NCBI GenBank assembly: GCA_022711115.1
Contig: JAKLFP010000006.1
Coordinates: forward strand, 86,214 to 150,213
Length of the DNA: 64,000 nucleotides
Direction: 5' to 3'
DNA from: Candidatus Omnitrophota bacterium
GTDB taxonomy: Bacteria; Omnitrophota; Omnitrophia; Omnitrophales; Aquincolibacteriaceae
The notes below the pieces were generated by a model. That model searched no databases. It was given only the letters and a program-made list of their open reading frames with translations, and had not been told where the DNA came from. A program made the position numbers and the translations under genes. Shown one piece after another: positions 1-64,000 of this stretch. Numbering within the stretch: position 1 is the first letter of the stretch; each line of letters starts with the position of its first letter.

Positions 1-3000
1 TAAAGTGTTTGCGCCCAGTTGTTTTTCCAAACGGTTCATCAAAATATCCATGGGATCCAGAAGAGCGCTTTGATTTTTAACTTTTCCGGCCGTCTCTTTT
101 TCTATTTGGGCTTTCCTTCCCGCCAAGTTAATCGCTTCTTCCAGTCTCTGCAGACCCAGAACAAATTCATCCATACCCGGGAAAATAGGTTGGGCTTTAG
201 CTGCCTCCAGTTTGCTTTTTGATTTTTTCAGATCGTCTTTTGCTAAAGCGCCTTCGACACCTGCCAAGAAACTTTTTAAAATCTCATTCCGCCGCGTCCA
301 TTCCTGTATGTCCTGCCCGTTTCGGACAAATTTTCCGAGTGCTTCAAGTTCTGTTTCTGAAAGAAGCGAAACCATGGCTTCATAAATTCTTCCGGCTTCA
401 TAAAGTTTTTTCTTTTTGGAATCGACATCCTGCAAGGCGCCCCGCTCCTCCATAAGGGCAACCAGCATCTCAAGTTTTTCAAGTACTAGAAGCTCCTTCG
501 CGCTCTGTTCTTTTGATGTCGCGAGAAAAACCTCGGCGATTCGTTCAACGGACGCAAGATATTCCTGAGAAGTGACCCATGGCAAAATCGTTTGCCGAAA
601 ATTTGCGGCAGAAGTTGCCTTTTTTGTTTTCAACATTTGGATCGTTGCGGCAAGCCGCCCCGCCGCGCCGCCATGTCCGCTCAACGCATCCTCCCACGAA
701 GCTTTGAAAAGAGCGCTACGGCCTTCTTTTTCTTCAGAGAAACCTATTTGGATCCACTCATCCGCATTGGGCCATTGGCCGCTTGGATCGAAATATTCTT
801 TGAGAAAATCAAAAAATTTTGTCCGCACAGCGGAAAGCCGGGTTTCCTTCACGGTCCTTTGATCATCCAGGCCCATGCGCTTGAAAAAAGCCACATTAAG
901 CGCGATCAGAAAACGGTTCTTTTCTCCGGCGTCCGGAATGGCATCGAGATAACTCTGCATCTTCTCTGTCGCGGGAACCATATCGTCAAGAACCTTTTTT
1001 AGCGGTGGAAAAAGAGACGTCCCGCTGGAAAAACGGCCGAAATCTTTCTGAGTGATCAGTGCTTGTCTTGGGTTCTCCTGCATAGCAAGGAATAGACCGA
1101 GTACCGGCATATAGATTTCACGCATTTGTTCTGGAATCTCAAAAAGCCTTTGCCTTTCCGGGGGAACCTTGCCGAACTCCTTTTGAAGCCGTTCCAAAAG
1201 ACTTCGCTTGGGACGCGCCGCTTCTGACAAAGATTGGACGGTACGCGCGACCTGTTTATGAGCTTGTATCAAGGGGTAGAGCACTGAACGCAGTTCCGGA
1301 AAATCTTCGCGCAAGGCTTCATAGGCCTGCGCCGAATCTTGCGGGGTGCCCGTTTCAAGGGCTTTACGAAAATCAATCAGCCGTTGGAATTGAGCAAGCC
1401 GCACGTTTAGATCTTCCACGACACTTCTTAATTCACTGCGCGGCGTTTTAGTTTGCACCCATTGAAAAATAGCCTCCACGCTTTGGACAAAAGCATCTTG
1501 TGAACTTAAATCGAAAGACGGCGGGCTGTTCATTCTTTTTATTTCGCTAAGCTCGATAAGCCGGCGAACCTGTCCTTGATAAATCTCAAAAGCCTGGGTT
1601 AATTCCTTTAAAATTTTATTGGCATAATCAGCCGCCGCCAGATTTTTAATCTTTTGTTCGAGACCGGCCAGATTTTTTTGTTTTTCAAATTCACGAACCG
1701 CGCCATGCCAAGTCTTATAAAAAACGGGCGTTTCTCCGGCGTCCGGGGCATACTTCATCATGAAATCGTCCAACCGGTCTCTCAGCACTTCGCCATCGGA
1801 TGTTTTAAAGGCATCATTGGAATCCATTCCAAGAGAGGTCAAGAAGGCCAGATTGAGGGCAACATACAATTCCCTTGCGGTTTCCGGCTTCGCTTGAAAA
1901 CGCTTTAAGATTTCAGAAGATGCCTTCTCGATCCATGGGTTGATAATGCGGAATTTGGAGCGGAATGCATGCATGTCTTGTGGCTGCAACAGGAAAACAA
2001 CTTTTCCGCTTGTTTTATCGAGATAAGTCGCAAGGAGAAGTCCGAGAACAGGAAAAAAGTGATCGGCTATTGAAATGTATTCCGTGAAGAATCCCATCCG
2101 GCCTTCAAGACCGGAATAACTTTTTGCGGGATCCAATCCGAACTCCCGCATCAGATTTTCTTTGGAAGCTAGGGGTTTAAGCGCGCGGCGGATCTGTGTT
2201 TCGGCTTGATGAAATGCTTGCAGGATCTGTTGGGTAGAACCTGCGGGGATCGTTTCCGGAGAGTGGAGTTTAAAAACACGCCGCTCATACTGTAATTCTA
2301 CTTTCATATGGTCATAGGTGGCCTGTTTCTCTTCTTCGGTCCGGGTGATTTGATGTGAATAAGCAACAATGGCCGGGGAGTTTCGCCCATGCTGGCGCGA
2401 CTCCGGAAAAAGACGCCCGTGCAGGGCGACTTCGGTAAGGAGTTTTTTCAGAGTATCAAATTTTTCATCTGTGTTCATCCCTTCATGAAACGCATATTTT
2501 TGAACCTCCGTATCCGCATAGACCATATTGGGAATCTCCTGAATGTCAACGCTGGGAGAACGAAGCGGCGATTCCAAAAACGCTACGATGAGCTCCTTCA
2601 TGAAACTTGCTTTGCTTTCATGGCCATGGGCCTCTGCCGGGGGGTCGACGATAGGCTGGTTGAAAACCAGTTTTAAACGGGGCGGATAATGGATCAAAGG
2701 TGAGAACTCTTTGCCCAGAGGATCCGCCGGAACGGACGGAATAAACTGGATGTCTACCACGTTCTTCAAGGCACGTGCAATTTCATATTCGGAACGTAGC
2801 ACCGGTCGAAAACCAAGATTGAGCATGACCCACAGCAAGATGATATTGGCTGCTCTGGGACTGGGTGGTGTGAAGCGGGGTTTTTCTGACGATGGAAGCG
2901 ATTCCGGAAAAAGATTCAAGAGACGATAGGCGAGAAGTTCATTGTCCCGGAACGCGCTAACAGTCGTGATTTCATTCGGAGGCTTGGGTTTGTCGCCAAG

Positions 3001-6000
3001 AGACGGCACCTTCGGATCGATGTCCGTGTCCAAATTAGCCAGGATCCGCCGAACCTTGAAGGCATCCCGAAGAAGGACCCAGATGGGATGGTTTTGATCT
3101 GCTAAGAGCAAATTATATTTTTTTCTTGCCCCGACAAGAACATGCATTAACTGAACTAGATTTCCGGTCTTTCCTTTCGTAAGATACTCCTGATAGTACA
3201 ATTTTCTGGCCATTTCTTCTGTGGTAAAAAGATTTTTCCCCGCATTGAGCCGTTCCAGATCTTTGAGAACATATTGGAAAAAGATTCTATGTTGTTCTTG
3301 CAATTCAGGAACGTCATGAGGTGAAAGCGCCACACCCGGTCGCGAATCAATATCAAACAAGCTGATATCTTGAAGCAATTTCCGGTACTGCAAGCCTTCC
3401 TGAACCCGATTCAGTTGGTCCATGACATCGGGATTGATCCGAGAAACTTCTTGAGCTTCGACATGACCTTCGGCATCCATACTTAAATAGGAAATACCAT
3501 GGGGCTCCGAAGGAGCTTGGACGGCCATATGAATGCTTTTGTCGGCTCCAAAAACAAACCCGAAAATATGTTCAATGGTATTTTCTTTCGCATTCGACTG
3601 CGTTGTGATTTTAAGCACACCCGCGCCACTGACAGAAAACACATAAAAGTTTTGATCCGGGAAATCACTTCGAATCTCATTTATCCGCCTCTGGAGGGCT
3701 TTGGAATCCATCACGATTTTTCCGTTTGCCGCCGGAGCTTGCGACATTTTCGAAGAGCCTTCCCCGCTGCGCACTTCAGAACGTACAGGACCATCTGCTC
3801 GTGATTTTTCTACAGCCTTTGAAACAGCATAGATGACCGGCTCCCAGCTCACCTGACCCGCTTTATCTTCCAAGATGCTTGTTAGCTGGGTATGGACGTA
3901 ACTGCTTATCGCATTGTAATGAGGCCGGACTTCACCGCTGCGAACTCTTGCAACAAAAAACTCCACCCATTTTTGTCCGGAACCTTCGCCAAAAGCTTTA
4001 TCGATTTTTTCAAAAGAAGAACGCACCTCCGCTCGATGTATAGACCTATGTTTCGGTTGTAAGATTATCGCGGTCGCTCCCCCATCATAGAGTTGCTCAA
4101 TTTTTTTAGACGCATACCATTGGCCTTCAGGGTCGAGATGCTCAAGATATCGGCGATAGCGGTCTTGCAGCATTTGCCTGAAATAGGTATGCCTGCTGAT
4201 GGTGTTATCCCACAATGGAATATCCGCGTCCTTTTCGACAGAGCTTTTTTCCAACAGCAAATGGGATCTTAAACTATTAGCAATCACGGCCGCCTTGGGC
4301 AATTGGGTTAAAGAATGAAGCGACGCTGTGGTGATCCTGACTGCATTATCAAACGGGTCTCCTTCTTCACTCCCCCCCAGCGATAAAACTCCACTATTGA
4401 GAATAAGATCGAATTTTTTCCCATGAAAATATCCTTTCGTATCCATCAGGCGCGCATCACCGTTTCGGGCATCTATTCCATTTTCTCTTTTACCATTCCA
4501 TCCTCCGACCGTAAGGGTCGACATAGCGCCACCGGCTTTTTTCAGAATATCATTGAGGAAATTCTCAAACACTCCGTCCGAGCCAATCTCTAAAATGTTT
4601 TTGATGCCATAATGCCTGAGGAGAAAGAGCAGCCGGTCCTCGGGATCCGATGGAAGCTCACCGTCAAAATCGTGCTCAAGATGATAAAAAATCATTGCTA
4701 AAAGATGCACATAATTGAATCTGGGAAGCTCAAAGCCTTCTTCGCCTTTCTTAATCAGCAAAGCTCTTGCCAAATAGTAATATTTTTTGGTTTTTGAATC
4801 CGGGAATTCTACGTAATTGAGAGGAACGACAGTTTTCGAATCATAGCGTTGTTGCATGTCCGACTGCAGTTTCTGCCATAGAGTAGGTTCAACAATATTG
4901 GGATGCGAAATAATGGACTGGGATTCTTGCTTGTACATCTGTGCCACAACGGTTTTGGATTGATCGAAAATGGGAGTCAACTGACCTTCAAAAGGTAAAG
5001 TTGCATTTCTTATTTCGGAACGATCAAAGGTAAGGCCTTGATTTGCAACAGTGAGACCGTGCTCTTCCAGGACAAGGGGATCAAGTGAACGGAGTAAAGC
5101 GGCAAACGGATGGTCGGCATCACCGACCTCGCGAAGACCTGTATTCAAACCCTCCAAATATTGAGTCCCCATTGCTTCGCTGAGCTGTGACTGAATAGCG
5201 CCTAACCCCATGAGGAGTGTAGGTTGGCGAATCGTTGACCCTGCCAAGACCCGGTCTTTGATCTCATGCGCACGAAGCTTAAGACCGGGTCTTGATTGTT
5301 CGGTCATAAGCTTGAGATAGCACTTGCCGTCGATTTTTTTCGAAATCCTTGGCGTAACGCGTATAAAAGAAATCTGGTGATCCTTGAAATATTGCGAAAG
5401 CCCTTCCGAGTGAAAGCCCCCGGTTACGAGAACCGCGTTTGGTTGATTGAGTGATTTCATCCGCCGCAGCATTTTTTCGAACATAATTTTTTCGCGTGCT
5501 TCCGCCAGCTCATAGAATCGCAAAGCGTCCACTACCCTGTCTTGGACGGTTCCGTTCCCTGGCGGATTATGCTCAGCGTTCAAAAGACGGTTTTGATCGT
5601 TGCCCGCTGACCGTTTTTCTTTGATTGTTCGATATTCTTCCCTGCTTAGTTCCAGAGCAAAGAGCTTCTTCAACAACAAATAATCTTGGTAACGATGGAT
5701 CACTTCTTTTTCAAAAGTTGTCTTCCCGAGCTTCTCCAGAACTTTTTCATTAAGTTGTTCGATTTCCTTAAATAGATCCGTCGCTTGAAGTTCGCTGGAA
5801 AGAATCGCCACGCCTATCCGACGCGTAAGGTTGGGATAATCTTCGAAACGAAAACCTTTCGGGGCAACGATACTATAAAATTCTTCAAAAAAACTTCGGG
5901 ACTCAAGACTCGGGGCTGGGGACTTGACTAAAAACGTTTCAAAACCATCTGCCATGGTGCCCAGTTTATGATCTATGAGCCATTTTTTCAGTTTTTGTAT

Positions 6001-6942
6001 TTCAGATTCAACAAGGGACGAGTTCCGGGCAACAAGTTTCTGTAAATTTTGGATTTTAAAAAATCGAACTAGCATGGGCCATTCAATCTGATGGCGAGTA
6101 TCGTTAAAATCGTGCCCTAAATAATCACGGGCATATTTCTCAAGAAGCGTTAAATGCGAAAGGATATCCTTGCCGGCTTCTTCTTGAAAAATCCAGGCTT
6201 TAAAAAAATCTTTTAGCTCTTTATTCAGAACCTTCGAGCTCTGCACCATAATCTTTCGGCGCATCTCATTCAAAAAACGATCCGTTTCGTTCTTGTGGCC
6301 GTAAACATCTCGAAAGACTTCAAGGTTCTTGCGATAGAGCACTTCGTCTTCAACTCCATAGACCACAGACTGAAGACTGGCGACTGAAACTTTAAAGTCT
6401 TTGGCCTGACGTCTTTGGCCGGCAGTCTGTTTTGAAAGAAACCGCTCCACGCCGCCAACGAACCCGAGTTTCGTCAATGCATCGATATATTTTTGATTCA
6501 GTTTTTCATCTTTGAAAAAAGCAAGTCTTTCCGGTTTTAACTCTCCGAAGCCGCCTTCTAAAAGAATCGTGTCGAACCCGTAACGGTCCTTCAGATGATT
6601 GAGAATGCGTTCTGTCTTGATCTGTGCTTCCTCACTGCCGTGGGCATCTTCGATATGGACAACCAGACTGGAGACTGAAAATGGAAGACCGAAGCGAGAG
6701 GTATTGCCAATTTCGGGTTTATAAATCTCGTTGATGATACCGATTTCGGAAGGAATAGCGATTTGATCGACCAATGAGGAGATGCTAGTCTCTAGTCTCT
6801 GGTCTACAGTCTGTAGTCTTGGAATTGAAAGATCCGCAGGCGCAGCTTGGGTGATGGTGGTGGTGGTGAAAATAAATACAATGATTCCCGCCACCAAGCG
6901 AATAGGAAAAGAGAATCTGGCACTTTTCTCGACGAAGCGCAT
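1..6942 (-). CDS. Giant modular ORF, second copy. Only the 5' portion lies in the window: the ATG is at 6942..6940 and the ORF runs off the left edge, so at least 2,313 codons are in the window. Signal peptide plus TraB/GumN/Tiki-like N-terminal domain, then modules separated by R-S-E-h-R junctions at 5008..5022, 3769..3783 and 1426..1440.
   Basis: No in-frame stop between 6942 and position 1, since no complete long minus ORF is listed there. The N-terminus MRFVEKSARFSFPIRLVAGIIVFIFTTTT is signal-peptide-like. It is paralogous to the N-terminus of ORF 25993..61080 (VHIEDAH, LLEGG and VLVTGGFHSEG motifs). The same RSEIR, RSEVR and RSELR junction peptides occur in frame. Confidence 0.8.
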   Translation of the reverse strand, partial: MRFVEKSARFSFPIRLVAGIIVFIFTTTTITQAAPADLSIPRLQTVDQRLETSISSLVDQIAIPSEIGIINEIYKPEIGNTSRFGLPFSVSSLVVHIEDAHGSEEAQIKTERILNHLKDRYGFDTILLEGGFGELKPERLAFFKDEKLNQKYIDALTKLGFVGGVERFLSKQTAGQRRQAKDFKVSVASLQSVVYGVEDEVLYRKNLEVFRDVYGHKNETDRFLNEMRRKIMVQSSKVLNKELKDFFKAWIFQEEAGKDILSHLTLLEKYARDYLGHDFNDTRHQIEWPMLVRFFKIQNLQKLVARNSSLVESEIQKLKKWLIDHKLGTMADGFETFLVKSPAPSLESRSFFEEFYSIVAPKGFRFEDYPNLTRRIGVAILSSELQATDLFKEIEQLNEKVLEKLGKTTFEKEVIHRYQDYLLLKKLFALELSREEYRTIKEKRSAGNDQNRLLNAEHNPPGNGTVQDRVVDALRFYELAEAREKIMFEKMLRRMKSLNQPNAVLVTGGFHSEGLSQYFKDHQISFIRVTPRISKKIDGKCYLKLMTEQSRPGLKLRAHEIKDRVLAGSTIRQPTLLMGLGAIQSQLSEAMGTQYLEGLNTGLREVGDADHPFAALLRSLDPLVLEEHGLTVANQGLTFDRSEIRNATLPFEGQLTPIFDQSKTVVAQMYKQESQSIISHPNIVEPTLWQKLQSDMQQRYDSKTVVPLNYVEFPDSKTKKYYYLARALLIKKGEEGFELPRFNYVHLLAMIFYHLEHDFDGELPSDPEDRLLFLLRHYGIKNILEIGSDGVFENFLNDILKKAGGAMSTLTVGGWNGKRENGIDARNGDARLMDTKGYFHGKKFDLILNSGVLSLGGSEEGDPFDNAVRITTASLHSLTQLPKAAVIANSLRSHLLLEKSSVEKDADIPLWDNTISRHTYFRQMLQDRYRRYLEHLDPEGQWYASKKIEQLYDGGATAIILQPKHRSIHRAEVRSSFEKIDKAFGEGSGQKWVEFFVARVRSGEVRPHYNAISSYVHTQLTSILEDKAGQVSWEPVIYAVSKAVEKSRADGPVRSEVRSGEGSSKMSQAPAANGKIVMDSKALQRRINEIRSDFPDQNFYVFSVSGAGVLKITTQSNAKENTIEHIFGFVFGADKSIHMAVQAPSEPHGISYLSMDAEGHVEAQEVSRINPDVMDQLNRVQEGLQYRKLLQDISLFDIDSRPGVALSPHDVPELQEQHRIFFQYVLKDLERLNAGKNLFTTEEMARKLYYQEYLTKGKTGNLVQLMHVLVGARKKYNLLLADQNHPIWVLLRDAFKVRRILANLDTDIDPKVPSLGDKPKPPNEITTVSAFRDNELLAYRLLNLFPESLPSSEKPRFTPPSPRAANIILLWVMLNLGFRPVLRSEYEIARALKNVVDIQFIPSVPADPLGKEFSPLIHYPPRLKLVFNQPIVDPPAEAHGHESKASFMKELIVAFLESPLRSPSVDIQEIPNMVYADTEVQKYAFHEGMNTDEKFDTLKKLLTEVALHGRLFPESRQHGRNSPAIVAYSHQITRTEEEKQATYDHMKVELQYERRVFKLHSPETIPAGSTQQILQAFHQAETQIRRALKPLASKENLMREFGLDPAKSYSGLEGRMGFFTEYISIADHFFPVLGLLLATYLDKTSGKVVFLLQPQDMHAFRSKFRIINPWIEKASSEILKRFQAKPETARELYVALNLAFLTSLGMDSNDAFKTSDGEVLRDRLDDFMMKYAPDAGETPVFYKTWHGAVREFEKQKNLAGLEQKIKNLAAADYANKILKELTQAFEIYQGQVRRLIELSEIKRMNSPPSFDLSSQDAFVQSVEAIFQWVQTKTPRSELRSVVEDLNVRLAQFQRLIDFRKALETGTPQDSAQAYEALREDFPELRSVLYPLIQAHKQVARTVQSLSEAARPKRSLLERLQKEFGKVPPERQRLFEIPEQMREIYMPVLGLFLAMQENPRQALITQKDFGRFSSGTSLFPPLKKVLDDMVPATEKMQSYLDAIPDAGEKNRFLIALNVAFFKRMGLDDQRTVKETRLSAVRTKFFDFLKEYFDPSGQWPNADEWIQIGFSEEKEGRSALFKASWEDALSGHGGAAGRLAATIQMLKTKKATSAANFRQTILPWVTSQEYLASVERIAEVFLATSKEQSAKELLVLEKLEMLVALMEERGALQDVDSKKKKLYEAGRIYEAMVSLLSETELEALGKFVRNGQDIQEWTRRNEILKSFLAGVEGALAKDDLKKSKSKLEAAKAQPIFPGMDEFVLGLQRLEEAINLAGRKAQIEKETAGKVKNQSALLDPMDILMNRLEKQLGANTL
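1426..1440 (-). other. Junction motif RSELR in the truncated giant ORF. Ser is encoded by AGT.
   Basis: cgc agt gaa tta aga. This is the only copy using the AGY serine codon family. Confidence 0.85.
3769..3783 (-). other. Junction motif RSEVR in the truncated giant ORF.
   Basis: cgt tct gaa gtg cgc. Confidence 0.85.
5008..5022 (-). other. Junction motif RSEIR in the truncated giant ORF.
   Basis: cgt tcc gaa ata aga, in frame with the ATG at 6942. Confidence 0.85.
5023..6942 (-). other. Module 1 of the truncated giant ORF: signal peptide plus TraB/GumN/Tiki-like domain (640 aa).
   Basis: Motifs VVHIEDAHGSEEAQIKTERILNHL, ILLEGG and AVLVTGGFHSEGL align with the other two paralogs in the window. 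Confidence 0.5.
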
Positions 6943-8021: not shown

Positions 8022-8046
8022 GTCTGCAGGCTGAAGACTAGAGACT

Positions 8047-8662: not shown

Positions 8663-9200
8663 GGCCTGGAAAAACCTTGAGAGTTTCTTTCAAACCGGCT
8701 AGTCGCTTCAAACTTTCCCGCATTTTCAGTTCACTGCCTCCCGGAAGGTCACAACGCCCGCAAGCCCCGACAAAAAGTGTGTCCCCGGTCACCAGCCTAT
8801 CCTCGACAAGAATACATTGAGATCCTTCCGTATGACCCGGCGTGTGTATCAATATCAACTCCACATTGCCGATCTTCAGCAGAAAGCCTTCATAAGTTTC
8901 CAGAAGACGCTCTTTGATATCCTTGAGATGCCTTGCCTCTTTTTCGTGGACATAGACAGGACCCGCTATTTTTTGAATAAGATCGTTGACGCCGTTGCAG
9001 TGATCAAAATGCGTATGCGTCAAGACTCCGGCCACAACCTTCATTCCATCTTTCTCGGCTTCGCTCAAAACCGCATCCACATCCCAGGCCGGATCAACCA
9101 CAACGCATTCTTTTTTGCTTTTGTCCCCGATCAAATAGCAAAAATTCTGCATATAGCCAACCGGTATTTGTTTAAAATAAAGATTGCCGCTGTTACTCAC
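8592..9200 (-). CDS. MBL-fold metallo-hydrolase (glyoxalase II / hydroxyacylglutathione hydrolase-like).
   Basis: 202 aa. THTHFDHCNG is the HxHxDH metallo-beta-lactamase motif, with a downstream GHTEGS motif. Confidence 0.8.
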   Translation of the reverse strand: MSNSGNLYFKQIPVGYMQNFCYLIGDKSKKECVVVDPAWDVDAVLSEAEKDGMKVVAGVLTHTHFDHCNGVNDLIQKIAGPVYVHEKEARHLKDIKERLLETYEGFLLKIGNVELILIHTPGHTEGSQCILVEDRLVTGDTLFVGACGRCDLPGGSELKMRESLKRLAGLKETLKVFPGHAYGDAEESTMGHEKKTNPFMRF

Positions 9201-9684
9201 CGCATGGACACCTTTTCGTCTGGATACGTTCGTAATAAATACTTTCTATCTTAGGCTGGTCGCATAAATTCAAACGGGATTGTTCCGAAAAAGAAAACGG
9301 AAGCGGTGGATAAAAAACATCGCCGTCATAATTCTGATGAATCCGCGTCATATAGACCCCATCAATGAGAGAAAGTGTTTGCATGAAAAGATCCGCTCCC
9401 CCAAGGATAAAAGCCTTTTGTGTTTTGATTTGCCCAAGGGCATCTCCGAGCGTATCGAAGAATTGCGGATTGTCACCTCCTGAGGGAAGAGATTTGCTCA
9501 GAACAAAATTCTGACAATCCGGCAACGGTTTGCCGAGACCTTCATAGGTTTTGCGACCCATGATCACCGTGCTCCCAATGGTCAACTTACTGCGGTGTTC
9601 CCTGTCTTCTGGAAAACACCAAGGTATTTTCTGGTTCTTTCCGATAATATGATTTTGAGCGACCGTCACGATATGAAATAGCAT
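9193..9684 (-). CDS. folA: Dihydrofolate reductase.
   Basis: 163 aa. N-terminus MLFHIVTVAQNHIIGKNQKIPW matches the DHFR signature (I.A...N..IG....LPW). FILGGADLF is the GG motif. Confidence 0.88.
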   Translation of the reverse strand: MLFHIVTVAQNHIIGKNQKIPWCFPEDREHRSKLTIGSTVIMGRKTYEGLGKPLPDCQNFVLSKSLPSGGDNPQFFDTLGDALGQIKTQKAFILGGADLFMQTLSLIDGVYMTRIHQNYDGDVFYPPLPFSFSEQSRLNLCDQPKIESIYYERIQTKRCPCGE

Positions 9685-9726
9685 AAGACCTTCCCTGCAG
9701 CAGCTACCTTAAAGAATTAAAAAGAC

Positions 9727-10221
9727 TCACGCTTGTTTCTCATAAAAAACAACTTCAAGCAAGGGATCGTCCTGCAGTTTTTCCCGTGATTTTTCTTTAA
9801 AGGCAGCCGGGATTTCCGGATAAAAAACATCGCCCTGGTAATCGGCGTGAATACGGGTGAGATAAATGCCGTGGGCTCGATTAATGGAAGTCCTGTAAAG
9901 CTCCGCACCCCCAATGATAAAAGCGCGCTCGGTCTTCACATTTTTCAAAGCGTCCTCGAGCGTGGAGAAATAGGTTTGACCTGGATAGGGATTTTGACCG
10001 CTCCGATCCAAAATAAAGTTTTGACGTCCCGGCAACGCCTTGCAACCAAGGCTTTCAAATGTCTTGAGGCCCATAATCACCGTCTGGCCTGTGGTCATTT
10101 TTTTGAAATGCTGCAGATCTTTTGAAAAATGCCAGGGGAGTTGATTCCCCTTCCCAATCACTCGGTTATTCGCAACAGCCACAATATGGTAAAGCACAAA
10201 ACCTCCAAACTTTTTGACCAA
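9727..10221 (-). CDS. folA: Dihydrofolate reductase, second tandem paralog.
   Basis: 164 aa with YHIVAVANNRVIGKGNQLPWHF and FIIGGAELY. Roughly 45% identical to the adjacent DHFR. Confidence 0.88.
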   Translation of the reverse strand: MVKKFGGFVLYHIVAVANNRVIGKGNQLPWHFSKDLQHFKKMTTGQTVIMGLKTFESLGCKALPGRQNFILDRSGQNPYPGQTYFSTLEDALKNVKTERAFIIGGAELYRTSINRAHGIYLTRIHADYQGDVFYPEIPAAFKEKSREKLQDDPLLEVVFYEKQA

Positions 10222-10277: not shown

Positions 10278-11072
10278 TTAAACAGCAACAGGTGCCTTGA
10301 TCGCCGGATGAGGGTCATAACCTTCCAGCTTAAAATCTTCGTATTTAAAATCAAAAATATTTTTTACCGAGGGATTCAGAACCATCTTCGGCAGAGTTTT
10401 CGGCTCGCGGCTCAACTGCAGCTGAACCTGTTCCCGATGATTCAGATAAATGTGCACGTCTCCAAACGTATGCACAAATTCGCCCGACTTCAGACCCGTC
10501 ACCTGTGCCATCATCATAGTCAGAAGCGCGTAAGAAGCAATATTGAAAGGCACCCCCAGAAAAACATCCGCGCTCCGCTGAAAAAGCTGGCAGGAAAGCT
10601 TCCCGTTCAGAACATAAAACTGGAAAAACGCATGGCAGGGCGGCAAAGCCATTCGGTCGATCTCCCCGGCGTTCCATGCGCTGACGATGATTCTCCGGCT
10701 GTCCGGATTGATTTTGATCATGTTAACCGCGTCCGAGATCTGGTCCACCGTCGTTCCGTCATTTTTTTTCCAAGACCGCCACTGAGCGCCATAAACCGGC
10801 CCAAGATCTCCGTTCGCGTCGGCCCACTCGTCCCAGATGGTCACACCGTTGTCTTTCAAAAATTTGATGTTCGTATCCCCTTTTAAAAGCCAAAGCAATT
10901 CATAGAAAATCGATTTGGTGTGGATTTTTTTGGTGGTCACTAGCGGAAACCCTTCCGCCAGATCAAACCGCATCTGATAACCGAAGGTGCTGATCGTCCC
11001 AACGCCCGTGCGGTCTTTTTTTTCGGTGCCGTTTTTGAGGATATGCCGTAGAAGATCAAGATACGGCTTCAT
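10278..11072 (-). CDS. thyA: Thymidylate synthase.
   Basis: 264 aa. Has [10 protein letters not shown] (catalytic Cys motif), [10 protein letters not shown] and the conserved C-terminal PAIKAPVAV. Confidence 0.95.
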
Positions 11073-12142: not shown

Positions 12143-12193
12143 AGCAAGAGAGGCGCCAGAAGTTTGTTCCGCTGACGCTCGGTCTGAGGTCCG

Positions 12194-52900: not shown

Positions 52901-55900
52901 CGGACATCCCACGGATTGGCAAATTCAAGGTCCAAATGTTTCAGCTTAAGACCTGCTTGAGCGAGCATTTCAGAGAGCTCTTCGGTGATTCCATGTTTGC
53001 CCGAAGCGCGCATGCCACCGATCAAGATCACCTTGGGTTTTTTCTCAAGGATCTCACGGATAACCTCCTCGGTCTGTTGCTTTTTGGATCGATCCACCTT
53101 TTCGACCAATGCTTTTCTTTCCTCTTCGGTTTTGATCGCTCGAAGTTCGTCGAGAGTTTCGGGCAGAAGTTCCAGGCTCATGCCTTCAAGGTCATAAGGT
53201 TTTTGGCCCTCAAGTTTTTTCGCCCATGCTTCGGGATGGCGCGCCAATTCCGCATTCATAATACGGATGACGGCCAAAATAAAGGCTGCTTTTCGAAGAC
53301 TTATTTTTTTCGCGTCGGCAATACGAACAACATTGTTAAAAGCGCTGATAATTTTATCTTCCATAATGCGGTTCACGGCATCTTCCGGCCATTGTTCACG
53401 AACAAGGTTCTGCCGCCATTCCAGGTAAGAAACGATCACGCCGCCCGCATTGGCAACCACATCCGGAACAACGATGACACCTTTTTGCTTCAAAATTCCG
53501 TCGGTTTCCTTGTTTTTGATCGGTCCGTTGGCTGCTTCAATCACCAATTTGACCCGGAGCAAACGGGCAATGCGTTCATCAATGGTATTTTCGAGTGCGG
53601 CAGGCACTAGGGTATGAACCTCGCTGGCCCAAAATTCTTCCTCGGAGATCACTTTCACTTCTTCGGGGTATTCTTTTGCATAATCCAAAATGGTTTTCCT
53701 GGGAAGCATGTTGCCGGCCGCGTCTTTCCTGGGTGCCAGGAATTCCAGAATCTTGGGAATGTTCAAACGTTCACCGGTTTTGGTCGCAATAGCGCCTTCT
53801 TTTTCTTTCACGGCCATAATCCTTGCTCCATTTTCATGAAAGATTTGCGCGCCATGCCCGCCCACATTGCCGAGTCCTTCAAACGCAACGGTTTGTTTTT
53901 CTATCTCTGTCCCGATGCCGAGCCGGGCTCCAAAAACTTTGACTGCTTCGCGCCAGACAAAAAACACCCCACGGCCTGTTGCTGCAGTCCGACCATGTGA
54001 ACCGCCTTTTTTCTCGGGCTTGGCGGTCACCACAGCAATGGGAGATCCTTCTACCATTGGAATTTTATGCTTTTCAGGATTTGCTAAATACGCGTCTAAA
54101 TAGGGTGTGTCGACATCTTTGGAATTGCTTAGTTTCCACCGAAATTCGATTGTTTTTTTGAATAATTTGTCATGCTTAATCTTTAAAAATTCATCTGCCA
54201 TCCATGCCATTTCCTTTTCTCCAGTGCCGACATCCGGAGCCGGAATATCATTCAAAGGACCGATCGCATCGGCATCTTTGGCAAGCAAAGCCTTCACATA
54301 ACCTCGAGTCAATCGTGCGAGCTCGCCTTCTGAAAGCTCGCGCGGATTCACGGCAATGCCTCCCTTGCCCCCTCCGTAAGGAAGCCCTGTGATGGCATTT
54401 TTGATGCTCATCCACATGGAAAGAGCCTGCACATCCTCAAGATCGACATTCGATTTATAGCGCACACCGCCTTTTCCCGCCCCCCGCGCATCATTGTGAT
54501 AGACGCGATAGCCTTTAAAGATCTTTGTGGTGCCATTATCCATACGCACCGGAATATTTACTTCAAGGATACGATAAAAGCTGAGGAGCCATTCAAGAAG
54601 TTGGGGATCAAGGTGGATCAGCTCTGCGACCTCCGAAACCTGACGCTTTGCATTATCAAGGGCCACCTGACCTTCGGATGCTTTTGCCTGTGCTTCTTTT
54701 TCTGCTCGCACTTCGGACCGTCCTTCAAGTTGGCCGGGCATGTCGGCCATCAAAATTCCCTCGTCATCTGACAGCAACGTCTGCTGACCGCCAGGCGCTA
54801 CATAGCGCGACACCGGCCTGCTGAGTTTTTTTCCTCCGCTGAAATTCAGGAAAGCGATCGGTTTCCGGTTGAATTTTTCAGAAAGTTTGGAAGCCCAAAA
54901 ATCAGCGCTAAACTGATCCGTTCCGGCCACTACCAAAATCTGGTCTGCTTCTGATAATTCGTTAAATAACCTGTCGGGAGGTGAAGTGATGTCGATGGCC
55001 CATTCACTCTCATTGCAGATGAGCAGTGCCAGTTTGAATTTTTGATTCAATAAAATGATTCGCGATTCTTGGTTATGAGCGTATTTCTTGAATTCTGTTT
55101 TTTGAACTCGACCCGTTCCATCGGAAAGGAAAAAGACATAGAAAGCCCTTAAGTACTCCAGCCCTTCGGGAGGGATCCTCTCCAAACCGTAGCCGACCGA
55201 AATTCCAAGACGCCGGACCGTTTCTGAGAGAATTCTTTCTCTTTCTTTTTCGCGTTCCGGAGTGTAGCTGTTCCAACCCACAACTTCATCCGGGCTTTCA
55301 GGGAAAACAACAAGATCGGGGGCATTTGTTCCGAATTTATCTTTGAGCCCTTGCAGAATCCCCGCCATTCTGGCTGTGCTCGCATCAAAATCATTTTCCT
55401 TCATTTGGACCCAAGCGATCCTTGGAGCGTCACTTTTTGCCTTTTCGTCAAGCCACACAATCTGTGCGGGTAACGCTTCTTCTTTTTTTCTCACTTCGGA
55501 ACGAGAAGAAACTTCGGGCGGCTGTTCTTCAAAAAGAAGATCAAGGGCCAACTGACCTTCTTGACCATAACCTTTCTGCCGAAACAGATCTTCTAAGCGA
55601 GGGCGTTGTACGAGGTCGCTGAAATCCGCATCTTCGGAAATTTGGTCTTGTATGGTCTTGCGAAGCAATTCCAGAATCCTTCCCGCGGATGAATAATCAG
55701 AACCACGTTGAGTCTTACGAATAAGAGAATCTGTTAACGCCGTAAAAATATTAGCGAGAAAAATAGTGTCTCGAGCTTCCTGAGAGATATTGGCAGGAAC
55801 ACGGCTGGCTGGTTTTTGATCCTGCATTTTTGCCCTCGCAATAGCACTTTGAATCCAGTCCATGACCGTTTTCTTGGTTTTGTTTTCAGTCCTCACTTCA

Positions 55901-58900
55901 GAACGAACTGTGGCAGAAACCGTCATCTTTTCAAGAAGCTTTTGAGGTACAGGACGGCCCTCCTCAAAAAAATTGGCTGTCGCCCAATCATAAATGGCAC
56001 CCCCTACGGATTTTTGGGCTTGGAAAAAGTTTTCTTCTTTATTGCCGGGAAATTTTGATAACGTTTCGCCGGCTACCTTTAAAAACTCACTTTCAAGAAA
56101 TGTTTGCATCTCCTTTTTTCGCTTGGATAAATCCTGAAAAAATTTTCTTTCTTCTGCACTTGCGGTTTCTTCTATGTTTTTGGGGCGTTCAAGGAGTCTT
56201 TCGATAAAAAGCTTGGCGTAGAATTGCGCCATTTCGAGGTTAATCTTGTCCCATTTTAAATTTTTAAGCTCTTCGAGGGCTTTCTGCGCTTGCTGCCCCG
56301 CCGTCGTCAAAGCATCTTTTTTGGATAGGGCCAATTTTTGCCAATATTCGGAAGGCATACTCGCGATCATTTCGGGCGTTAGGTCATCCGCGCGAGTTGC
56401 GTTTTTGATTTTTTCCCAAGCAGCTTCGTTTTGTGCTAGGAATGCAGCTTCAGCTTCTCTTTTTTCAGCTTCAACGGCTTCCAGCTCTTCGATCTCCTTG
56501 TTTGTCACATCGAGTAAGAGGCGGCTCTTTTTCTCTAGAGCTTTTTGTTTTAACTCAGGAGTCGGCAACGCTTCGATGATTTCTTTTGTGATTTCTCCTG
56601 GCTCTGTTGCGTTCTGAACTACGGTGAGAGCATTCTTTACAGCCTGTCGCTTATTTTGCTCAACAACGCGCATGTAGTCTGTTTGAACCTGACCCATTTG
56701 CTTTGCTGTCCTGGTTTCTCCTTCTTGCATCAGTTTGGCTGTCGCTAATGCCTTTTTTTTAGCCCTTGCTAATTCCTGCCAATATCCGGATGGCATCCTT
56801 GCGATCATGGCTGGGGTGATGCTTTTGCTGCTTGTGGCTGTCCGGATGGTTTCCCAAACTTTTTTATTTTTTTCTGCTTGGACATCACCGGATCTCCGGA
56901 CTTCAGCTTCTTCAGATTCCATCTTCGAAATTTCCGCAGCTGTTATCTCCGAGAAAAGACGGCTTTTTGTCGCGATGGCTTCCTGTTTCAACGCCTGCGT
57001 CGGCAGTGCGTCGATAATTTCTTGCGTGATTTCTCCGGGCTCCATGGCACGCCGCACTACTTCTAAGGCATTTTGGATGATTTGCCGATCGTGCGCCTGA
57101 AGTTCGCGAGTCTGTTGCTCAAGCAAGGCTGTCTGACGAGCTTCACCGGCCGCTATGACTTTCCCCCATGACAATTGAGAAGCTTTTATTGCCGCTTTTT
57201 GGGCCTTTTGAACAGCAGCTTCTTTTGCAGCTTTTTCATCGGCCTTTTTCTTCGGTAAGGCAGCTCCCTGGGCAAGTTTCGACTTTTGAGCTGCTTCTTT
57301 GGATTTCTGAGTTTCTTGTTTCTCCCTTTCTTTTTGTTCCTTGGCCAACAAAGTAGCTATCTTCAAGGCTTCTGCCTTTTGAGCCGCCTCCTTGGCTTTT
57401 TGAGCCGCTTTTTCTTCCTCTTCTCTTTGTTTTTTTTCTAAAGCAGCTATTTTCGCAGCTTCTGATTTTTGAGCTGCTCTTTCTTCTTTTTCTTTTTCCT
57501 TTTTTTCAAGAGCGGCTAATTGGGCTTCGGACAAGCTTGGCTTTGCCGGTCGCGAAGTAATAATCTTTGGCTCTCTCCTTTGAGCCCGTTCAACCAAATA
57601 AGTTTTAAGAACCTCGCTTTCGGGATACATCTGCTGCAACTGGGTCATGGCACCATGGATCTGCTCCATGGTTCCCGTTTTTTGGATCTGGCGCACGCGG
57701 GCTTCTACTGCATTCCGAACGGTTTGAATATACATGTCCCTGTCACGCCGCTGCCTTTGTTTGATCTGTTGCAGATCCAAAAGTTTTTCGGCTGTCTTTT
57801 TTAAATCAGGATGTTTCGCGACCCACTGAGCCAATGCTTCTTGGAAGCGCCGGCCAATAAACACATTTCTTTTGCCAAAAAAAACATCCGCATTCCCTTT
57901 CCCATAGATTTGATTGATCTTCCGTCCGATACTTGTTGTTTCGATGACGCGCAGTTCGTTGGCGAGTATTTCAAGAGGAACGGGCATATTTTTGAATTGC
58001 GGGTTTCCATAATCGCGGATTCTTTTCAAAGCGCTATCCACTAATTCTGTGAAATCTTTATTTTCACTCGGAAGATGCAGTCCCCAAACTCCCATCTCCC
58101 TGAAATCCACTTCAAAACGGTGGATCGTGGAAGCTACAATCCCCGTTGTTTTTTCAAGGGCTTCCTTCAAACGAAGAAGCGTCAGCTTTTGATCTTTCGC
58201 GAGTTCTTTTTCGAGGTCTTCGACAGTCTTTATCACGGTATCGAACGTCAGCGTGACATGGCCGAGATTGACCTTTGTTTCCTTTGCTTTCTTTGCTCTT
58301 ACCTCGGAGCGAGAATGCGAAAGAAAAAGTTCCTGGATAGCCGACTTCTGATAATTCATGTCGGCGGGCCAGTCCTTTCCAAGAACGCCGTGGGCCCATT
58401 CGTGAAGATCCGCAAGAATATCCAAGAAAAATGCTTCTTTGGGATGGAGATCCGCAAGCTCGTGCGCGTAACCGATAATAGAAAACCGTTTGAGTGAATC
58501 AAGAAAAGTCAGTGCGCCATGAAAATTTGTATCCGCCGTACCGGCCTCAAGCGCCAAAAAAAGATCTTCCGATTCCTGGATCAATCGCTCAAGAAGTGGC
58601 CGCCAAATTTGATGCGCGGGAGTAGAGCTCGAGAGATTCCATTGTTGCAGGACCTTTACAAGTCGATTGTTGGTCCGGTCTAAAAGGCTCTTCAGCTCCT
58701 TGATGGATTTTTCATCCGCAGGCGAAAAAGAAATATTCCTGGAAAAAACAACCCCATAGAAATTTTTATCCGGTATCGGAGAAATCCCAGGGACATGCTG
58801 CCTGGTGAACATATCCAATGCCTCAAGCCATAAACCTGAAAGCTGATAATAAACTGCTCCAAAATGCGCCAAAAGCACGTCACCCTCTTTGGCATTCCCT

Positions 58901-61080: not shown

Positions 61081-61395
61081 GAAATAGGTTGTCTTTCCTT
61101 ATTTCCGATCTGGATCTTTAGGTATGAGAAAACTCGCTGAAAGCGTAACATATTTTTTTATAATTTCAAGTTCTTGAAAAAGGATTTATTAATGCATGCA
61201 TTAAGATTTTAAATTTCGTTACTAATGACACTCCATTGCTATATACTGCTAGAATAAGAAAATTCATGGCAGGAGCTGTCTCTACTCCGTGTTGATTTTA
61301 GACACGATCTGGGCTATATATATTGTGCATTGCGCGAGAGTTCCAAGGTACACTGCAATAAAATTACGTAATGCTGTTTCCAAAATGAGGACACG
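61081..61395. promoter_or_regulatory. AT-rich divergent intergenic region between the giant ORF (minus) and its stand-alone TraB-like paralog (plus). Presumed bidirectional promoters.
   Basis: 315 bp, strongly AT-rich (tataatttcaagttcttgaaaaagg..., ctatatact...). Both flanking ORFs have SD-like sequences adjacent to their ATGs. Confidence 0.4.
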
Positions 61396-63573
61396 ATGCG
61401 TCATCCTATTTCCTATAAAAGCGCTAGTGTGGCATTGGCTGCTATTTCAATGTTCCTTTTTTACAACTGGACTGCCACGGCGGAAACAACTCCTTCGTTA
61501 CCTTTAGAAAATCTTGCAATCCCTGAGTCCTTAGGCAAGGTTCAGGAACGTTTCGTCGGTTCCGGAAACCGCATCATTATTCAGATTCAGGATGTCCATG
61601 CACACGCCGCCGCACAGGAAAACATCGCGGCCATTCTGGAGCATCTTCAAATTGTCGGCAGGATCGATAAAGTCGCCTTGGAGGGTGCCTGGATCACAAC
61701 TGATTTGCCGAAAAGCCACGCTTTACCGACTTCCAGAGAAAAACAACTTCTCGCCAGATCCCTGCTGAGCGATGATCTTATTTCAGGCCCTGTCTACGCC
61801 TCCCTGATTGCCCCCTCCCCCTTGATGCTGATGGGGATGGAAGATGCGGAGTTGTATGAAAAAAACCGCGATCTTTTCATTAAACATCTTGAAGCCGCAC
61901 CAGCCATTGATTCGAAAGTTCGTGCTTATGGAGAAAGATTGCAAAACCTGCAAAAACAAGCCTGGAACCAGGATCTTCTGACTTTTGGAATTGCTTTTTC
62001 AAAATTTGAAGAAGCGATGGATTATGGAAAATTTTTTCCTTTCTTAATAGAAATTTCAGGTTCTCACAACGTTGATTTTTCAGACCTCGCTCAGATTGTT
62101 TTAACACGGGACATTATGGCTTTCGAAAAATCCATCTCGAAAGAACGCCTCGAGAAAGAGGCCAAACAGCTTATGCGTCAATTCAAGGACACTCCCTGGA
62201 CGCTGGAAGAATTGATTCGAGGCAATAAAATCCCGTCCGAACAGCTGGGTTTTTATCCGGAAATAAAAAAACTCCTCCACTTATTCAAACTTAGAGATCG
62301 GGTTTCTCTAACCGAGCTCATGTCTCAGACGGAAACCCTCATCAGTCGTATCCTCAAAATGCTTATTCAGACACCGGAAGAAGAGGCTTTGTGGGGAAAA
62401 AGTGAAAGATTTTTCCTGGCGAAACGGATTCTTCTTCTCAAGGCAGCGCCAGATGACCTCAAAACTTATGAGGATGAAAAAGCGGCTCTGGAGGCGGATC
62501 TTCAAGAGGCCGGACTTTCCGAGGGATTAGATCTTTCCTTGAAATTTTATGAAGTTGTTAAAAAACGCGATGAAATCTTTTATGACAAGATCGTTAATGG
62601 CCCCGCGTTCGCGGGTCCCCTTGCCGTCGTCACGGGGGGATTTCATACGGATGGTCTCTCCAAAAAATTTCGCGCCGCAGGAATCTCATATATCACGATT
62701 GCTCCCGAACTCGGGAACACTTCTATGGATGAAAAGCTTTATGTTGAGAGAATGCGTTCTTCAAAACCAGCGCAATACCAGGATTTGCCGCCCTTGGCAG
62801 ATCCCGGTATTGCCGAGGGTAAAACGGAAACTCTCTCGGAGCTTCGCAATGCTATTGCTTGGATCGACGAAAGATTTTTCGAGGCTTATGAGGTCTTGAT
62901 GCAAACCAAGGATGTACGAAAAGCCGTTGCTGCTTTTTCCGGAACAACCGTCACTATTTCTAACGCGCAAAAGATATCGTATGCCTATTCTGCGGGCAAA
63001 GTTGTTTCGGCAAGAAAGACAGGGGGAACCACCATTCCGGCCATTCATGAAGCTGAATTCCTAGCCAGCACGCGACAGGAACAATTAGCCGTTGTGCAAG
63101 GATGGCTTGATAAAGCTCCCCGCGTCGATCAAAAGGCCATGCTGGTCTCTTCTGTCAGTGTTCTTAAAAAATTGCTTTCGGACGAAAAAGTTCCAGGGCT
63201 GATCGAAAAAATCACTAAAAACGGGGATTTGCTTGTACTCCTGCAGGATATTCCCTTAACCGAAGTGCCTGAATCTTTGATGACAGCACGAGGGATCGAT
63301 CGTTTTGATGCGCCGGATTTCCAGCACTTGCTCCAAAATATGCCGCGTTTTCAAAGGCTTGCTAAAAAATATCCTTTTGCAATCATGAAAGAGGGCTACC
63401 GAAGCCAGGCCTATGTGGTGCTTCCGGAAGATCCGGCCTCATTAATCCTTTACCGAATCGTCACCTTAAGCCCAAGCCTTTATCAGGCTGCCAAAAACCC
63501 TCGCTTTCTTAATCTTTTGAAGGAGCTTGTTGCAGAGATCTTGTCCGAAGAGCTTCCTAAAAAATCCGTTTAG
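61396..63573 (+). CDS. Stand-alone paralog of the giant-ORF head domain: secreted TraB/GumN/Tiki-like protein (725 aa) with a unique C-terminal ~230 aa. No junction motif.
   Basis: gagga SD 5 nt upstream. The hydrophobic N-terminus MRHPISYKSASVALAAISMFLFYNWTATA is followed by IIIQIQDVHAHAAAQENIAAILEHL, ALEGAW and LAVVTGGFHTDGL, aligning with module 1 of both giants. Ends with a normal stop. Confidence 0.8.
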   Translation: MRHPISYKSASVALAAISMFLFYNWTATAETTPSLPLENLAIPESLGKVQERFVGSGNRIIIQIQDVHAHAAAQENIAAILEHLQIVGRIDKVALEGAWITTDLPKSHALPTSREKQLLARSLLSDDLISGPVYASLIAPSPLMLMGMEDAELYEKNRDLFIKHLEAAPAIDSKVRAYGERLQNLQKQAWNQDLLTFGIAFSKFEEAMDYGKFFPFLIEISGSHNVDFSDLAQIVLTRDIMAFEKSISKERLEKEAKQLMRQFKDTPWTLEELIRGNKIPSEQLGFYPEIKKLLHLFKLRDRVSLTELMSQTETLISRILKMLIQTPEEEALWGKSERFFLAKRILLLKAAPDDLKTYEDEKAALEADLQEAGLSEGLDLSLKFYEVVKKRDEIFYDKIVNGPAFAGPLAVVTGGFHTDGLSKKFRAAGISYITIAPELGNTSMDEKLYVERMRSSKPAQYQDLPPLADPGIAEGKTETLSELRNAIAWIDERFFEAYEVLMQTKDVRKAVAAFSGTTVTISNAQKISYAYSAGKVVSARKTGGTTIPAIHEAEFLASTRQEQLAVVQGWLDKAPRVDQKAMLVSSVSVLKKLLSDEKVPGLIEKITKNGDLLVLLQDIPLTEVPESLMTARGIDRFDAPDFQHLLQNMPRFQRLAKKYPFAIMKEGYRSQAYVVLPEDPASLILYRIVTLSPSLYQAAKNPRFLNLLKELVAEILSEELPKKSV

Positions 63574-63893
63574 ACTTTTTCCGCCAGTTCTTTCCAGTTT
63601 GCAAGCGTCGTTTCAAAGCTTTGTTCGAGAATGTCTCTGACCTTCTGCTCGCCGAGAATCATACCTGCAATCCCCAGATCCCAGGCCACTTCAATGGCAA
63701 CCTGAACACCGTCTGAAACCGGCTGAAAGTCGTGCGTTCTTTTCATGACACCATTCATCGGAAGCTTGCTCTGAATGACCGCATGGCGCATCGGTTCCCA
63801 AACCATCATTTCATGCTCAGCTTCGATATGCTGCCGGCCAAGTTCACAGGATTCGCGCCAGCACAGGCCTTTCCCTTCCACGATCTCACCCAT
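63570..63893 (-). CDS. Hypothetical protein. The N-terminus may lie beyond the right edge of the window.
   Basis: 107-aa ORF with coding-like composition, convergent with and overlapping 4 nt of the 61396..63573 gene. No motif recognised. Confidence 0.35.
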   Translation of the reverse strand: MGEIVEGKGLCWRESCELGRQHIEAEHEMMVWEPMRHAVIQSKLPMNGVMKRTHDFQPVSDGVQVAIEVAWDLGIAGMILGEQKVRDILEQSFETTLANWKELAEKV

Positions 63894-64000
63894 CCGTTCG
63901 GTTTCCTTGACACCATCGATCCATTCGGGATACCGGCGGACATCGGCAAGCAGTCCCCAAACTTTGTCAAGAGACGCATTGATGAAAATTGATTTTTTAA

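Follow-up and report, generated by a model that had tools for sequence, protein, structure and literature searches.

The stretch of DNA analyzed here, which we refer to as the window, comprises 64,000 nucleotides from a Candidatus Omnitrophota bacterium (assembly GCA_022711115.1, contig JAKLFP010000006.1, positions 86,214 to 150,213 of the forward strand). Its minus strand carries a giant open reading frame (ORF), ORF1 (25993-61080; 35,088 nt), which is complete and stop-free and encodes 11,695 amino acids between one ATG start and one stop codon. A short peptide, R-S-E-x-R, which we call the delimiter, recurs throughout ORF1, and from the sequences described below we consider it rather probable that ORF1 encodes a polyprotein that is processed by proteolysis. 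A second giant, ORF2 (1-6942, minus strand), starts with an ATG at 6942 in a frame that is stop-free from 6975 and runs past the left edge of the window. Because JGI calls this gene at 9,554 residues from an internal start at about window position 4773, the whole of ORF2 would measure about 10,300 residues, or about 31 kb. The genes between and around the two giants are ordinary, those around ORF1 in their lengths as well, and almost all of them lie on the minus strand.

ORF1 is a real gene. The identical 11,695-residue gene was called in four independent assemblies (ENA ERZ27257456, JGI 3300009838, JGI 3300025706, and NCBI GCA_035390585.1, in which the region lies on contig DAOOUA010000012.1), and a 462-kb JGI contig and a Logan assembly likewise contain the region flanking ORF1. 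Because the same gene was called in four independent assemblies, it is not an assembly artefact. TAA, TAG, and TGA are all without a single occurrence across the 11,695 codons, and therefore reassigning one stop codon cannot create the ORF; both explanations were ruled out on these grounds.

A first-pass annotation of the window, made from the letters alone, had likened it to lineages such as Omnitrophota, and this inference proved correct yet ordinary in itself. Everything in the gene content it had listed (split transketolase, MqnA/D, ABC/GldG proteins, genes packed on a single strand, and ORFs above 30 kb) is present in the sequence. Seven flanking proteins exactly match entries within HOW59601-HOW59624, labelled 'Candidatus Omnitrophota bacterium'. 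Using a 9-sequence alignment of the first module of ORF1 (the leader, M01) as the query, we scanned one genome per GTDB species and found at least 549 loci. The best 80 of these lie on contigs titled Omnitrophota or Omnitrophica or in unlabelled 'uncultured bacterium' metagenome-assembled genomes, often several to a genome, and other phylum names among these 80 number zero. Placement in a well-studied phylum, which the annotation had named as the outcome that would speak against it, did not emerge from these protein matches and loci.

ORF1 belongs to an already known kind of gene, the enzyme-rich Omnitrophota giants. Glycolytic-enzyme domains have been reported inside the Omnitrophota 'Archaeovorins' (West-Roberts et al. 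2023; bioRxiv 10.1101/2023.11.21.568195), and for Omnitrophota giants a class termed 'multi-enzyme metabolic cluster' has been defined (Nielsen & Lui 2026; bioRxiv 10.64898/2026.06.07.730766). This class is defined by at least 10,000 residues on an Omnitrophota contig, and ORF1 has 11,695; it is defined also by a variety of families, and distinct Pfam families tile ORF1, each once, with none dominant by copy number (ELFV_dehydrog, malic, UDPGP, Epimerase, Inositol_P, Methyltransf, PP-binding, MraZ, HEAT, and Phosphorylase-like). The earlier annotation had rightly recognized enzyme modules and a conserved pentapeptide; its view that enzyme modules set this gene apart from the reported Omnitrophota giants did not hold, since enzyme-bearing giants were already published.

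The strict delimiter, RSE[VMLIA]R, was observed 33 times in ORF1 versus 0.07 expected from composition, with a maximum of 2 across 2000 shuffles. Five near-variants stand at comparable positions: RAEVR, RFEVR, HSELR, PSEVR, and RNELR, the last of them twice. In the reading frame of ORF1, all strict sites of the window fall inside ORF1 and ORF2; those of ORF2 are RSEIR (5008-5022), RSEVR (3769-3783), and RSELR (1426-1440), all on the minus strand. Four more matches in other frames of the window lie outside every gene's reading frame. An RSEIR-coding 15-mer is found at about 61097-61111 on the minus strand, in another frame; it precedes the ORF1 start codon by about 30 nt and could be the frameshifted relic of an older junction.

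Conservation around the delimiter is confined to the five residues, with none upstream of them. Codons vary synonymously at all five positions (CGC/CGT/CGG/AGG for the first, TCA, TCC, TCT, or TCG for Ser, GAA/GAG for Glu, and any of six for the final Arg); therefore the peptide, and not the DNA, is the conserved entity, and a conserved nucleotide repeat was ruled out. The residue that follows the final Arg is also constrained. In ORF1 it is Ala, Gly, Ser, or Thr at 20 of 33 sites (p 6e-5) and Leu, Phe, Trp, or Tyr at none of the 33 (p 0.0014); at 204 sites in 78 other loci, the corresponding numbers are 94 (p 6e-9) and 11 (p 3e-8). Such a constraint fits the P1' preference of a protease or avoidance of N-degrons, and it points to a cut directly after the final Arg.

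Cutting ORF1 at the strict and variant delimiters yields 38 modules (M01-M38) of 81 to 1,332 residues, all on the minus strand. Pfam recognition is limited to a minority of them, and most of the others are without a family match. The closing delimiter is RSEVR in M01-M05, M11, M12, M19, M22, M23, M26, M29-M31, M33, M35, and M37; RSEMR in M06, M07, M09, M16, M17, M21, and M28; RSELR in M15, M25, M27, M32, and M36; RSEIR in M10 and M24; and RSEAR in M13 and M20. Variants close M08 (RAEVR), M14 (HSELR), M18 (RFEVR), and M34 (PSEVR). The chain opens with the leader, M01 (59188-61080; 631 residues), whose RSEVR lies at 59188-59202, and closes with the terminal module, M38 (25996-26793; 266 residues), which ends in ...ARSA followed by the stop codon.

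The recognizable modules include several enzymes. M06 (52252-54705; 818 residues) is a complete glutamate dehydrogenase (GDH), with Pfam ELFV_dehydrog_N and ELFV_dehydrog matched over full profile length, joined to a C-terminal P-loop-like domain. M12 (48652-50379; 576 residues) is a malic enzyme (Pfam malic and Malic_M), and M13 (45568-48651; 1028 residues) is a delimiter-free fusion in which a UDP-glucose pyrophosphorylase-like domain is followed by a GalE-type epimerase and an extension at the C-terminus (Pfam UDPGP and Epimerase), the epimerase half of which is 39% identical to part of the giant ORF of locus L015. M18 (42829-43767; 313 residues) is of the inositol monophosphatase family (Pfam Inositol_P positions 9-246 of 271), and M25 (37060-37896; 279 residues) is an S-adenosylmethionine-dependent methyltransferase (Pfam Methyltransf_25/23/11) with a 57% identical module in the giant ORF of L009. 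M37 (26794-30789; 1332 residues) has weak similarity to alpha-glucan phosphorylase and starch synthase (weak Pfam and NCBIfam matches) and is 57% identical across its full 1,332 residues to modules in L009 and L012. M29 (35191-35604; 138 residues) is an acyl carrier protein (ACP; Pfam PP-binding) with an intact DSLD phosphopantetheine site. M32 (32968-33351; 128 residues) is MraZ-like (Pfam MraZ positions 1-56 of 72); MraZ modules are present also in the giant ORFs of L010 and L016, and a comparison of M32 with PDB sequences returned no match. M08 (51625-51948; 108 residues) consists of HEAT repeats.

Membrane or secreted modules lie among these. M11 (50380-50976; 199 residues) has a transmembrane (TM) anchor 34 residues past the delimiter, and M16 (44215-44646; 144 residues) begins with Met and an N-terminal TM anchor. 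Signal peptides stand right after the delimiter in M19 (41983-42828; 282 residues; ...SALAQ), M20 (40468-41982; 505 residues), and M22 (39391-40179; 263 residues), and after a Met in M24 (37897-38745; 283 residues), of which M19 is a secreted paralogue. M23 (38746-39390; 215 residues) is a membrane protein whose TM helices lie near residue 137, and M28 (35605-36024; 140 residues) has two TM helices. M19, M20, and M24 share an N-terminal motif, 'ILMSIRKGPATNQ', past the signal peptide. In M19 and M24, an extra RNELR lies 35-36 residues ahead of the true delimiter; cutting there too would free a short Pro/Ser-rich peptide.

Of the remaining modules, those of unknown function are M02 (58297-59187; 297 residues), M03 (55891-58296; 802 residues, with Lys/Glu/Ala-rich stretches and an internal duplication), M04 (55489-55890; 134 residues), M07 (51949-52251; 101 residues), M09 (51301-51624; 108 residues, with a homologue in L017), M10 (50977-51300; 108 residues), M15 (44647-45324; 226 residues), M17 (43768-44214; 149 residues), M26 (36625-37059; 145 residues), M27 (36025-36624; 200 residues), M30 (34504-35190; 229 residues), M31 (33352-34503; 384 residues, Met first), M33 (32641-32967; 109 residues), M35 (31234-31965; 244 residues), and M36 (30790-31233; 148 residues). 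M05 (54706-55488; 261 residues) is without a Pfam match, M21 (40180-40467; 96 residues) has a homologue in L017, and M14 (45325-45567) and M34 (31966-32640) measure 81 and 225 residues. The three successive modules M08, M09, and M10 (50977-51948) are all 108 residues long with the delimiter and have no evident mutual similarity.

Judged by alignment with free-standing homologues, the delimiters coincide with the termini of complete proteins. A gene from another metagenome, P0186, is monocistronic between opposite-strand genes and encodes a free-standing GDH with the C-terminal domain (796 residues). It is collinear with M06: its residue 3 lies opposite the third residue past RSEVR, which puts Met1 of P0186 on the first. 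At the other end, the alignment stops 17 residues short of the P0186 C-terminus, versus 28 residues remaining in M06, and no more than about 10 residues separate the end of P0186 from the next delimiter. GDH chains from the PDB align to M06 from about chain residue 9 to about 412, residue 3 of a PDB ACP chain aligns to residue 8 of M29, and position 1 of the MraZ Pfam profile aligns about 4 residues past the delimiter in M32. ORF1 therefore has two features expected of a polyprotein: it encodes proteins that are autonomous elsewhere (M06 as P0186, and the ACP, GDH, and MraZ modules, each of which covers its domain over the full length), and it bears a conserved short sequence at every junction.

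Targeting information, too, is carried module by module at the N-terminus. Hydrophobic segments in ORF1 number 12, and six of them begin within 35 residues past a delimiter (p 0.001). Four of these six (M19, M20, M22, and M24) are classical signal peptides with AxA-type ends, and the other two (M11 and M16) are TM anchors. Along the ORF, cytosolic enzymes, the ACP, the DNA-binding MraZ module, and membrane and secreted modules are interleaved.

The leader, M01, consists of about 560 residues and a tail, with an N-terminal signal peptide or anchor that has a positively charged n-region. An AlphaFold2 model (pLDDT 79.6, pTM 0.71) has an alpha/beta core, which is interrupted by about 300 residues of inserted helices. 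Three residues, H84, E112, and H503, are invariant in leader alignments, and in the model each follows a beta-strand. This arrangement would correspond to the catalytic layout of the erythromycin esterases (EreB/EreC). The leader is, on this model, a candidate for a putative hydrolase of the EreA/ChaN/TIKI/TraB-like fold, and as such a candidate processing enzyme. It resembles the EreA/ChaN/TIKI/TraB/GumN/RRSP superfamily in the invariant His, Glu, and His, and it differs from it in the insertion in its core and in the lack of a sequence-model match: searches against Pfam (E <= 1; TraB, Cofac_haem_bdg, and Erythro_esteras included), NCBIfam, and PDB profiles returned nothing meaningful. A Foldseek search of the model against the PDB gave no significant match (E above 0.06).

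The architecture of ORF1 is widespread in the phylum Omnitrophota. A HMMER scan of 1.84 billion representative proteins, with clusters at 50% identity, placed 9,791 clusters in the leader family at E <= 1e-3 and 6,744 at E <= 1e-30. In nearly all of the 150 best proteins, which reach 7,498 residues, the leader match lies at or near residue 1; ORF2 likewise opens with a paralogous leader, 33% identical to M01. Past the leader, R[SAP]ExR was observed 753 times in 146 other leader-bearing proteins, versus 21 expected. The density of sites is 1.81 per 1000 residues in leader ORFs versus 0.18 in other stop-free frames of at least 200 residues at the same loci, and most of the sites outside leader ORFs are concentrated in a few further giant ORFs. 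At the C-terminal end, at least 18 leader-bearing proteins (1,164-6,908 residues) have an M38-like module at their extreme terminus, and all of them end in ...ARSA or similar. The inner content varies. L009 has M37-like, M25-like, and M38-like modules, L010 has two MraZ modules followed by M37-like and M38-like modules, and the smallest family members contain one or two inner modules only.

At five loci (L025, L027, L033, L036, and L048), other plus-strand ORFs of 1,631-3,278 residues in the 10-kb flanks of leader ORFs carry 3-9 delimiters each; these ORFs are probably parts of neighbouring polyproteins, so that giant polyprotein genes may form tandem clusters like the one in the window.

The delimiter itself differs between genomes. 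Most genomes use RSExR. In CAYQTU01 all three loci have RPE[AS][RK], DAOPYQ01 and JBMONI01 use RAExR, and LSD[SAT]R occurs in locus L023 of MHFO01. Paralogous polyproteins of one genome use one delimiter variant, and the leaders there are only about 30-50% identical to M01. Such genome-specific variants look, at the level of sequence, like a recognition site that co-evolves with a reader shared genome-wide.

The reading that we favor is that ORF1 is a polyprotein processed by proteolysis. One chain of about 38 unrelated proteins would be translated from this operon-sized ORF and would be cut at R-S-E-[VMLIA]-R, most probably just past the last Arg, into proteins of ordinary size, which would then fold, insert, or be exported independently. 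The chain would always open with the signal-anchored leader and, in this subfamily, would close with the conserved terminal module, and the modules between these two ends would be gained, lost, and shuffled. We infer cleavage, the position of the cut within the delimiter, and the identity of the protease from these patterns. In our judgment the chances are even that operon-scale polyproteins of this design, in which a TIKI/EreA-like leader would precede dozens of unrelated housekeeping, membrane, and secreted proteins and a dedicated protease would cut at a lineage-specific pentapeptide (RSExR, RPExR, RAExR, or LSDxR), account for a substantial share of the Omnitrophota proteome.

Several observations weigh against proteolytic processing, or against the leader's part in it. 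M06 (GDH and P-loop-like domain) and M13 (pyrophosphorylase, epimerase, and extension) contain fusions that no delimiter divides, and the M06-type fusion occurs free-standing too, as P0186. There is also order at the nucleotide level. The delimiter codons show a residual preference (CGY-TCC-GAR-NNG-CGG), about 80% of sites have CGC or CGT for the first Arg, and AGY codons for Ser are found at 0 of 35 sites in the window and at 17 of 204 sites in other genomes. RNA folding around the delimiters slightly exceeds that of synonymous resamples in strength (z -0.3 to -0.5). The codon bias and folding may stem from common descent of the junctions, from ribosome pausing, or from a small hairpin, and a role of the delimiter at the RNA or translation level must be allowed for. 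As to the leader, its signal peptide would place it beyond the cytoplasm and so apart from the cytosolic modules that would have to be released, and one delimiter variant is common to the divergent leaders of a genome. A distant leader homologue, P0010 (593 residues), is encoded by a separate gene 21 nt upstream of a gene for 3,773 residues (L088 2207-9988; GCA_900206355.1, OBEQ010964001.1), which has its own signal peptide and no RSExR in the 1,993 residues available. The P0010 locus may represent an ancestral 'leader plus giant' operon; because P0010 precedes a giant gene without RSExR sites, the role of the leader may concern giant proteins in general and not cleavage.

These points bear on which protease would act. 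That the leader itself is the cleaving protease we regard as possible but somewhat doubtful, and a separate trans-acting protease, one per genome, is at least as likely. Since the divergent leaders of one genome share a delimiter variant, a single trans-acting reader is simpler than many co-evolving leaders.

The alternative that best survives comparison with proteolytic processing is that the giant chain remains uncleaved and works as a membrane-tethered scaffold or 'metabolon', in which R-S-E-x-R would serve as a linker or as a docking or modification motif (for example, for Ser phosphorylation). This view is implicit in Nielsen & Lui 2026, and the published topology predictions depict single chains with a signal peptide and many TM helices. 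The undivided enzyme fusions in M06 and M13 show, moreover, that covalent multi-enzyme chains do occur. However, cleavable signal peptides past four internal delimiters, among cytosolic enzymes, an ACP, and MraZ, would make an intact chain topologically incoherent; the delimiters match both the start and the end of free-standing homologues; and the enrichment of small residues and depletion of Leu, Phe, Trp, and Tyr past the motif would have no obvious reason in a linker. We therefore regard an uncleaved scaffold as rather unlikely.

Separation without a protease, during translation, would also yield individual proteins from one ORF, either by peptide-bond skipping (2A/StopGo) or by ribosomal pausing and drop-off. 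The non-random delimiter codons and the slightly stronger local RNA structure hint at a component at the level of translation. The 2A consensus is D(V/I)ExNPGP. R-S-E-x-R is unlike it, only five residues are conserved with none upstream, and LSDxR and RPExK variants would all need to exert the same effect on the ribosome. This mechanism is improbable.

Still more improbable is a signal at the RNA level, by which the 15 nt of the delimiter would be sites of mRNA processing or of internal initiation, with NTG at codon 4 as the start. In the window, codon 4 is indeed GTG, ATG, or TTG at 22 of 35 sites; TTG makes up 5 of the 6 Leu codons there (p 0.002), and 10 of the 18 Val codons are GTG (p 0.012). 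Elsewhere, however, codon 4 is most often GCG (Ala; 45 of 204), and the RPE[AS][RK] and LSD[SAT]R variants are without a start codon at position 4. We thus rejected an internal start at this position, since the NTG enrichment seen in this genome is not general. In addition, all modules lie in one stop-free frame, so that cutting the mRNA would produce non-stop transcripts; an Rfam search gave no match; and every delimiter codon varies synonymously. Finally, an artefact (assembly chimera, pseudogene, or reassigned stop) is scarcely credible, given the four independent assemblies, the absence of stop codons of all three kinds, the normal flanking genes, and modules conserved as protein (57% identity in M37).

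ORF1 resembles the published enzyme giants in phylum, in its length above 10,000 residues, in its many enzyme Pfam families, in bearing a signal peptide at the N-terminus, and in its scattered TM helices. In contrast to our reading, those giants have been seen as single surface or membrane chains, or C39 and S8 domains have been proposed as their processing enzymes. West-Roberts et al. 2023 speculated on cleavage by C39 or S8 domains and stated that the cleavage points are unknown, and Nielsen & Lui 2026 read a 147,155-residue example as one chain with a signal peptide, TM segments, and 147 TM helices. Keyword searches of both preprints found no mention of a delimiter motif, linker, leader, terminal module, or cleavage site, and full-text literature searches returned nothing relevant on 'RSEVR', an Omnitrophota polyprotein, or 'bacterial polyprotein'. 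The delimiter, the conserved end modules, and the precursor reading thus appear to be new. Archaeovorins have at least 30,000 residues with a C39 or S8 peptidase, SecA-like, and glycosyltransferase/TPR domains; ORF1 (11,695 residues) is far shorter and lies outside this group. Peptidase_C39, S8, and SecA gave no match in ORF1 at E <= 0.01.

Two kinds of established polyprotein invite comparison. In viral polyproteins (picornavirus-like, flavivirus, and potyvirus), as in our reading of ORF1, a single ORF gives rise to many unrelated mature proteins, and each junction bears a short conserved peptide. ORF1 is like these also in having a candidate hydrolase in cis, first in the chain as in N-terminal autoproteases. 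It is unlike them in lying on a cellular chromosome between housekeeping flanks, in combining housekeeping with secreted modules, and in that its cleavage is predicted from sequence; the leader fold is also unrelated to the chymotrypsin-like or papain-like folds of viral proteases. In the plastid-targeted polyproteins of Euglena and dinoflagellates (light-harvesting proteins (LHCP) and the RuBisCO small subunit), the units are split by a short conserved linker, which is removed by a dedicated protease. ORF1 shares with these precursors a cellular genome and units separated by a short conserved linker. However, the Euglena and dinoflagellate precursors repeat one protein, whereas the 38 modules of ORF1 are nearly all different, with only M19 and M24 evident paralogues.

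Whether the Omnitrophota giants, which reach 147,155 residues in Nielsen & Lui 2026, are megaproteins or precursors is a standing puzzle. A delimiter that occurs far above chance, lies at the termini of autonomous proteins, and varies between genomes supplies concrete candidate cut sites and makes the question directly testable. It also allows giant ORFs to be divided into modules, both for annotation and for predicting structures. Should cleavage occur, polyprotein expression would extend beyond viruses and a few eukaryotic precursors and would be a mainstream way for a bacterial phylum to express its genes, the cellular equivalent of what viruses do. Record 'giant proteins' would then be precursors and not functional megaproteins, published topologies such as 147 TM helices would need a new reading, and the uncharacterized leader family, with its thousands of clusters and no Pfam model, would gain a context.

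Directly downstream of ORF1 lies a gene of the MqnA/MqnD family of the futalosine pathway (25024-25902, minus strand; Pfam VitK2_biosynth PF02621, E 2.6e-73); taken from a TTG start, this MqnA-like ORF had no exact database match, and its called start probably differs. Also on the minus strand are the N-terminal (20077-20895) and C-terminal (19131-20075) subunits of the split transketolase, an ABC ATPase (14698-15450) and, after it, a fused ABC-2 permease/GldG-family protein (12194-14701), and thyA (10278-11072), which exactly matches HOW59619.1, labelled Candidatus Omnitrophota bacterium. Further neighbours encode a sulfotransferase, flavodoxin-like, GIY-YIG, and NUDIX proteins, an M24 peptidase, a gamma-glutamyltranspeptidase, ArsC/glutaredoxin, Bax1-I, and DUF4340 proteins, a metallo-beta-lactamase-fold protein, a TPR protein, and SOD. 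On the plus strand, 'ARSEVR' followed by a stop can be read at 12180-12197, in the spacer that separates the GldG-family and DUF4340 genes. Two DHFR genes (163 and 164 residues) stand in tandem beside thyA at 9193-10221. At the other end of the window, a 725-residue hypothetical protein without a significant Pfam family (HOW59601.1) is encoded on the plus strand at 61396-63573, divergent from ORF1.

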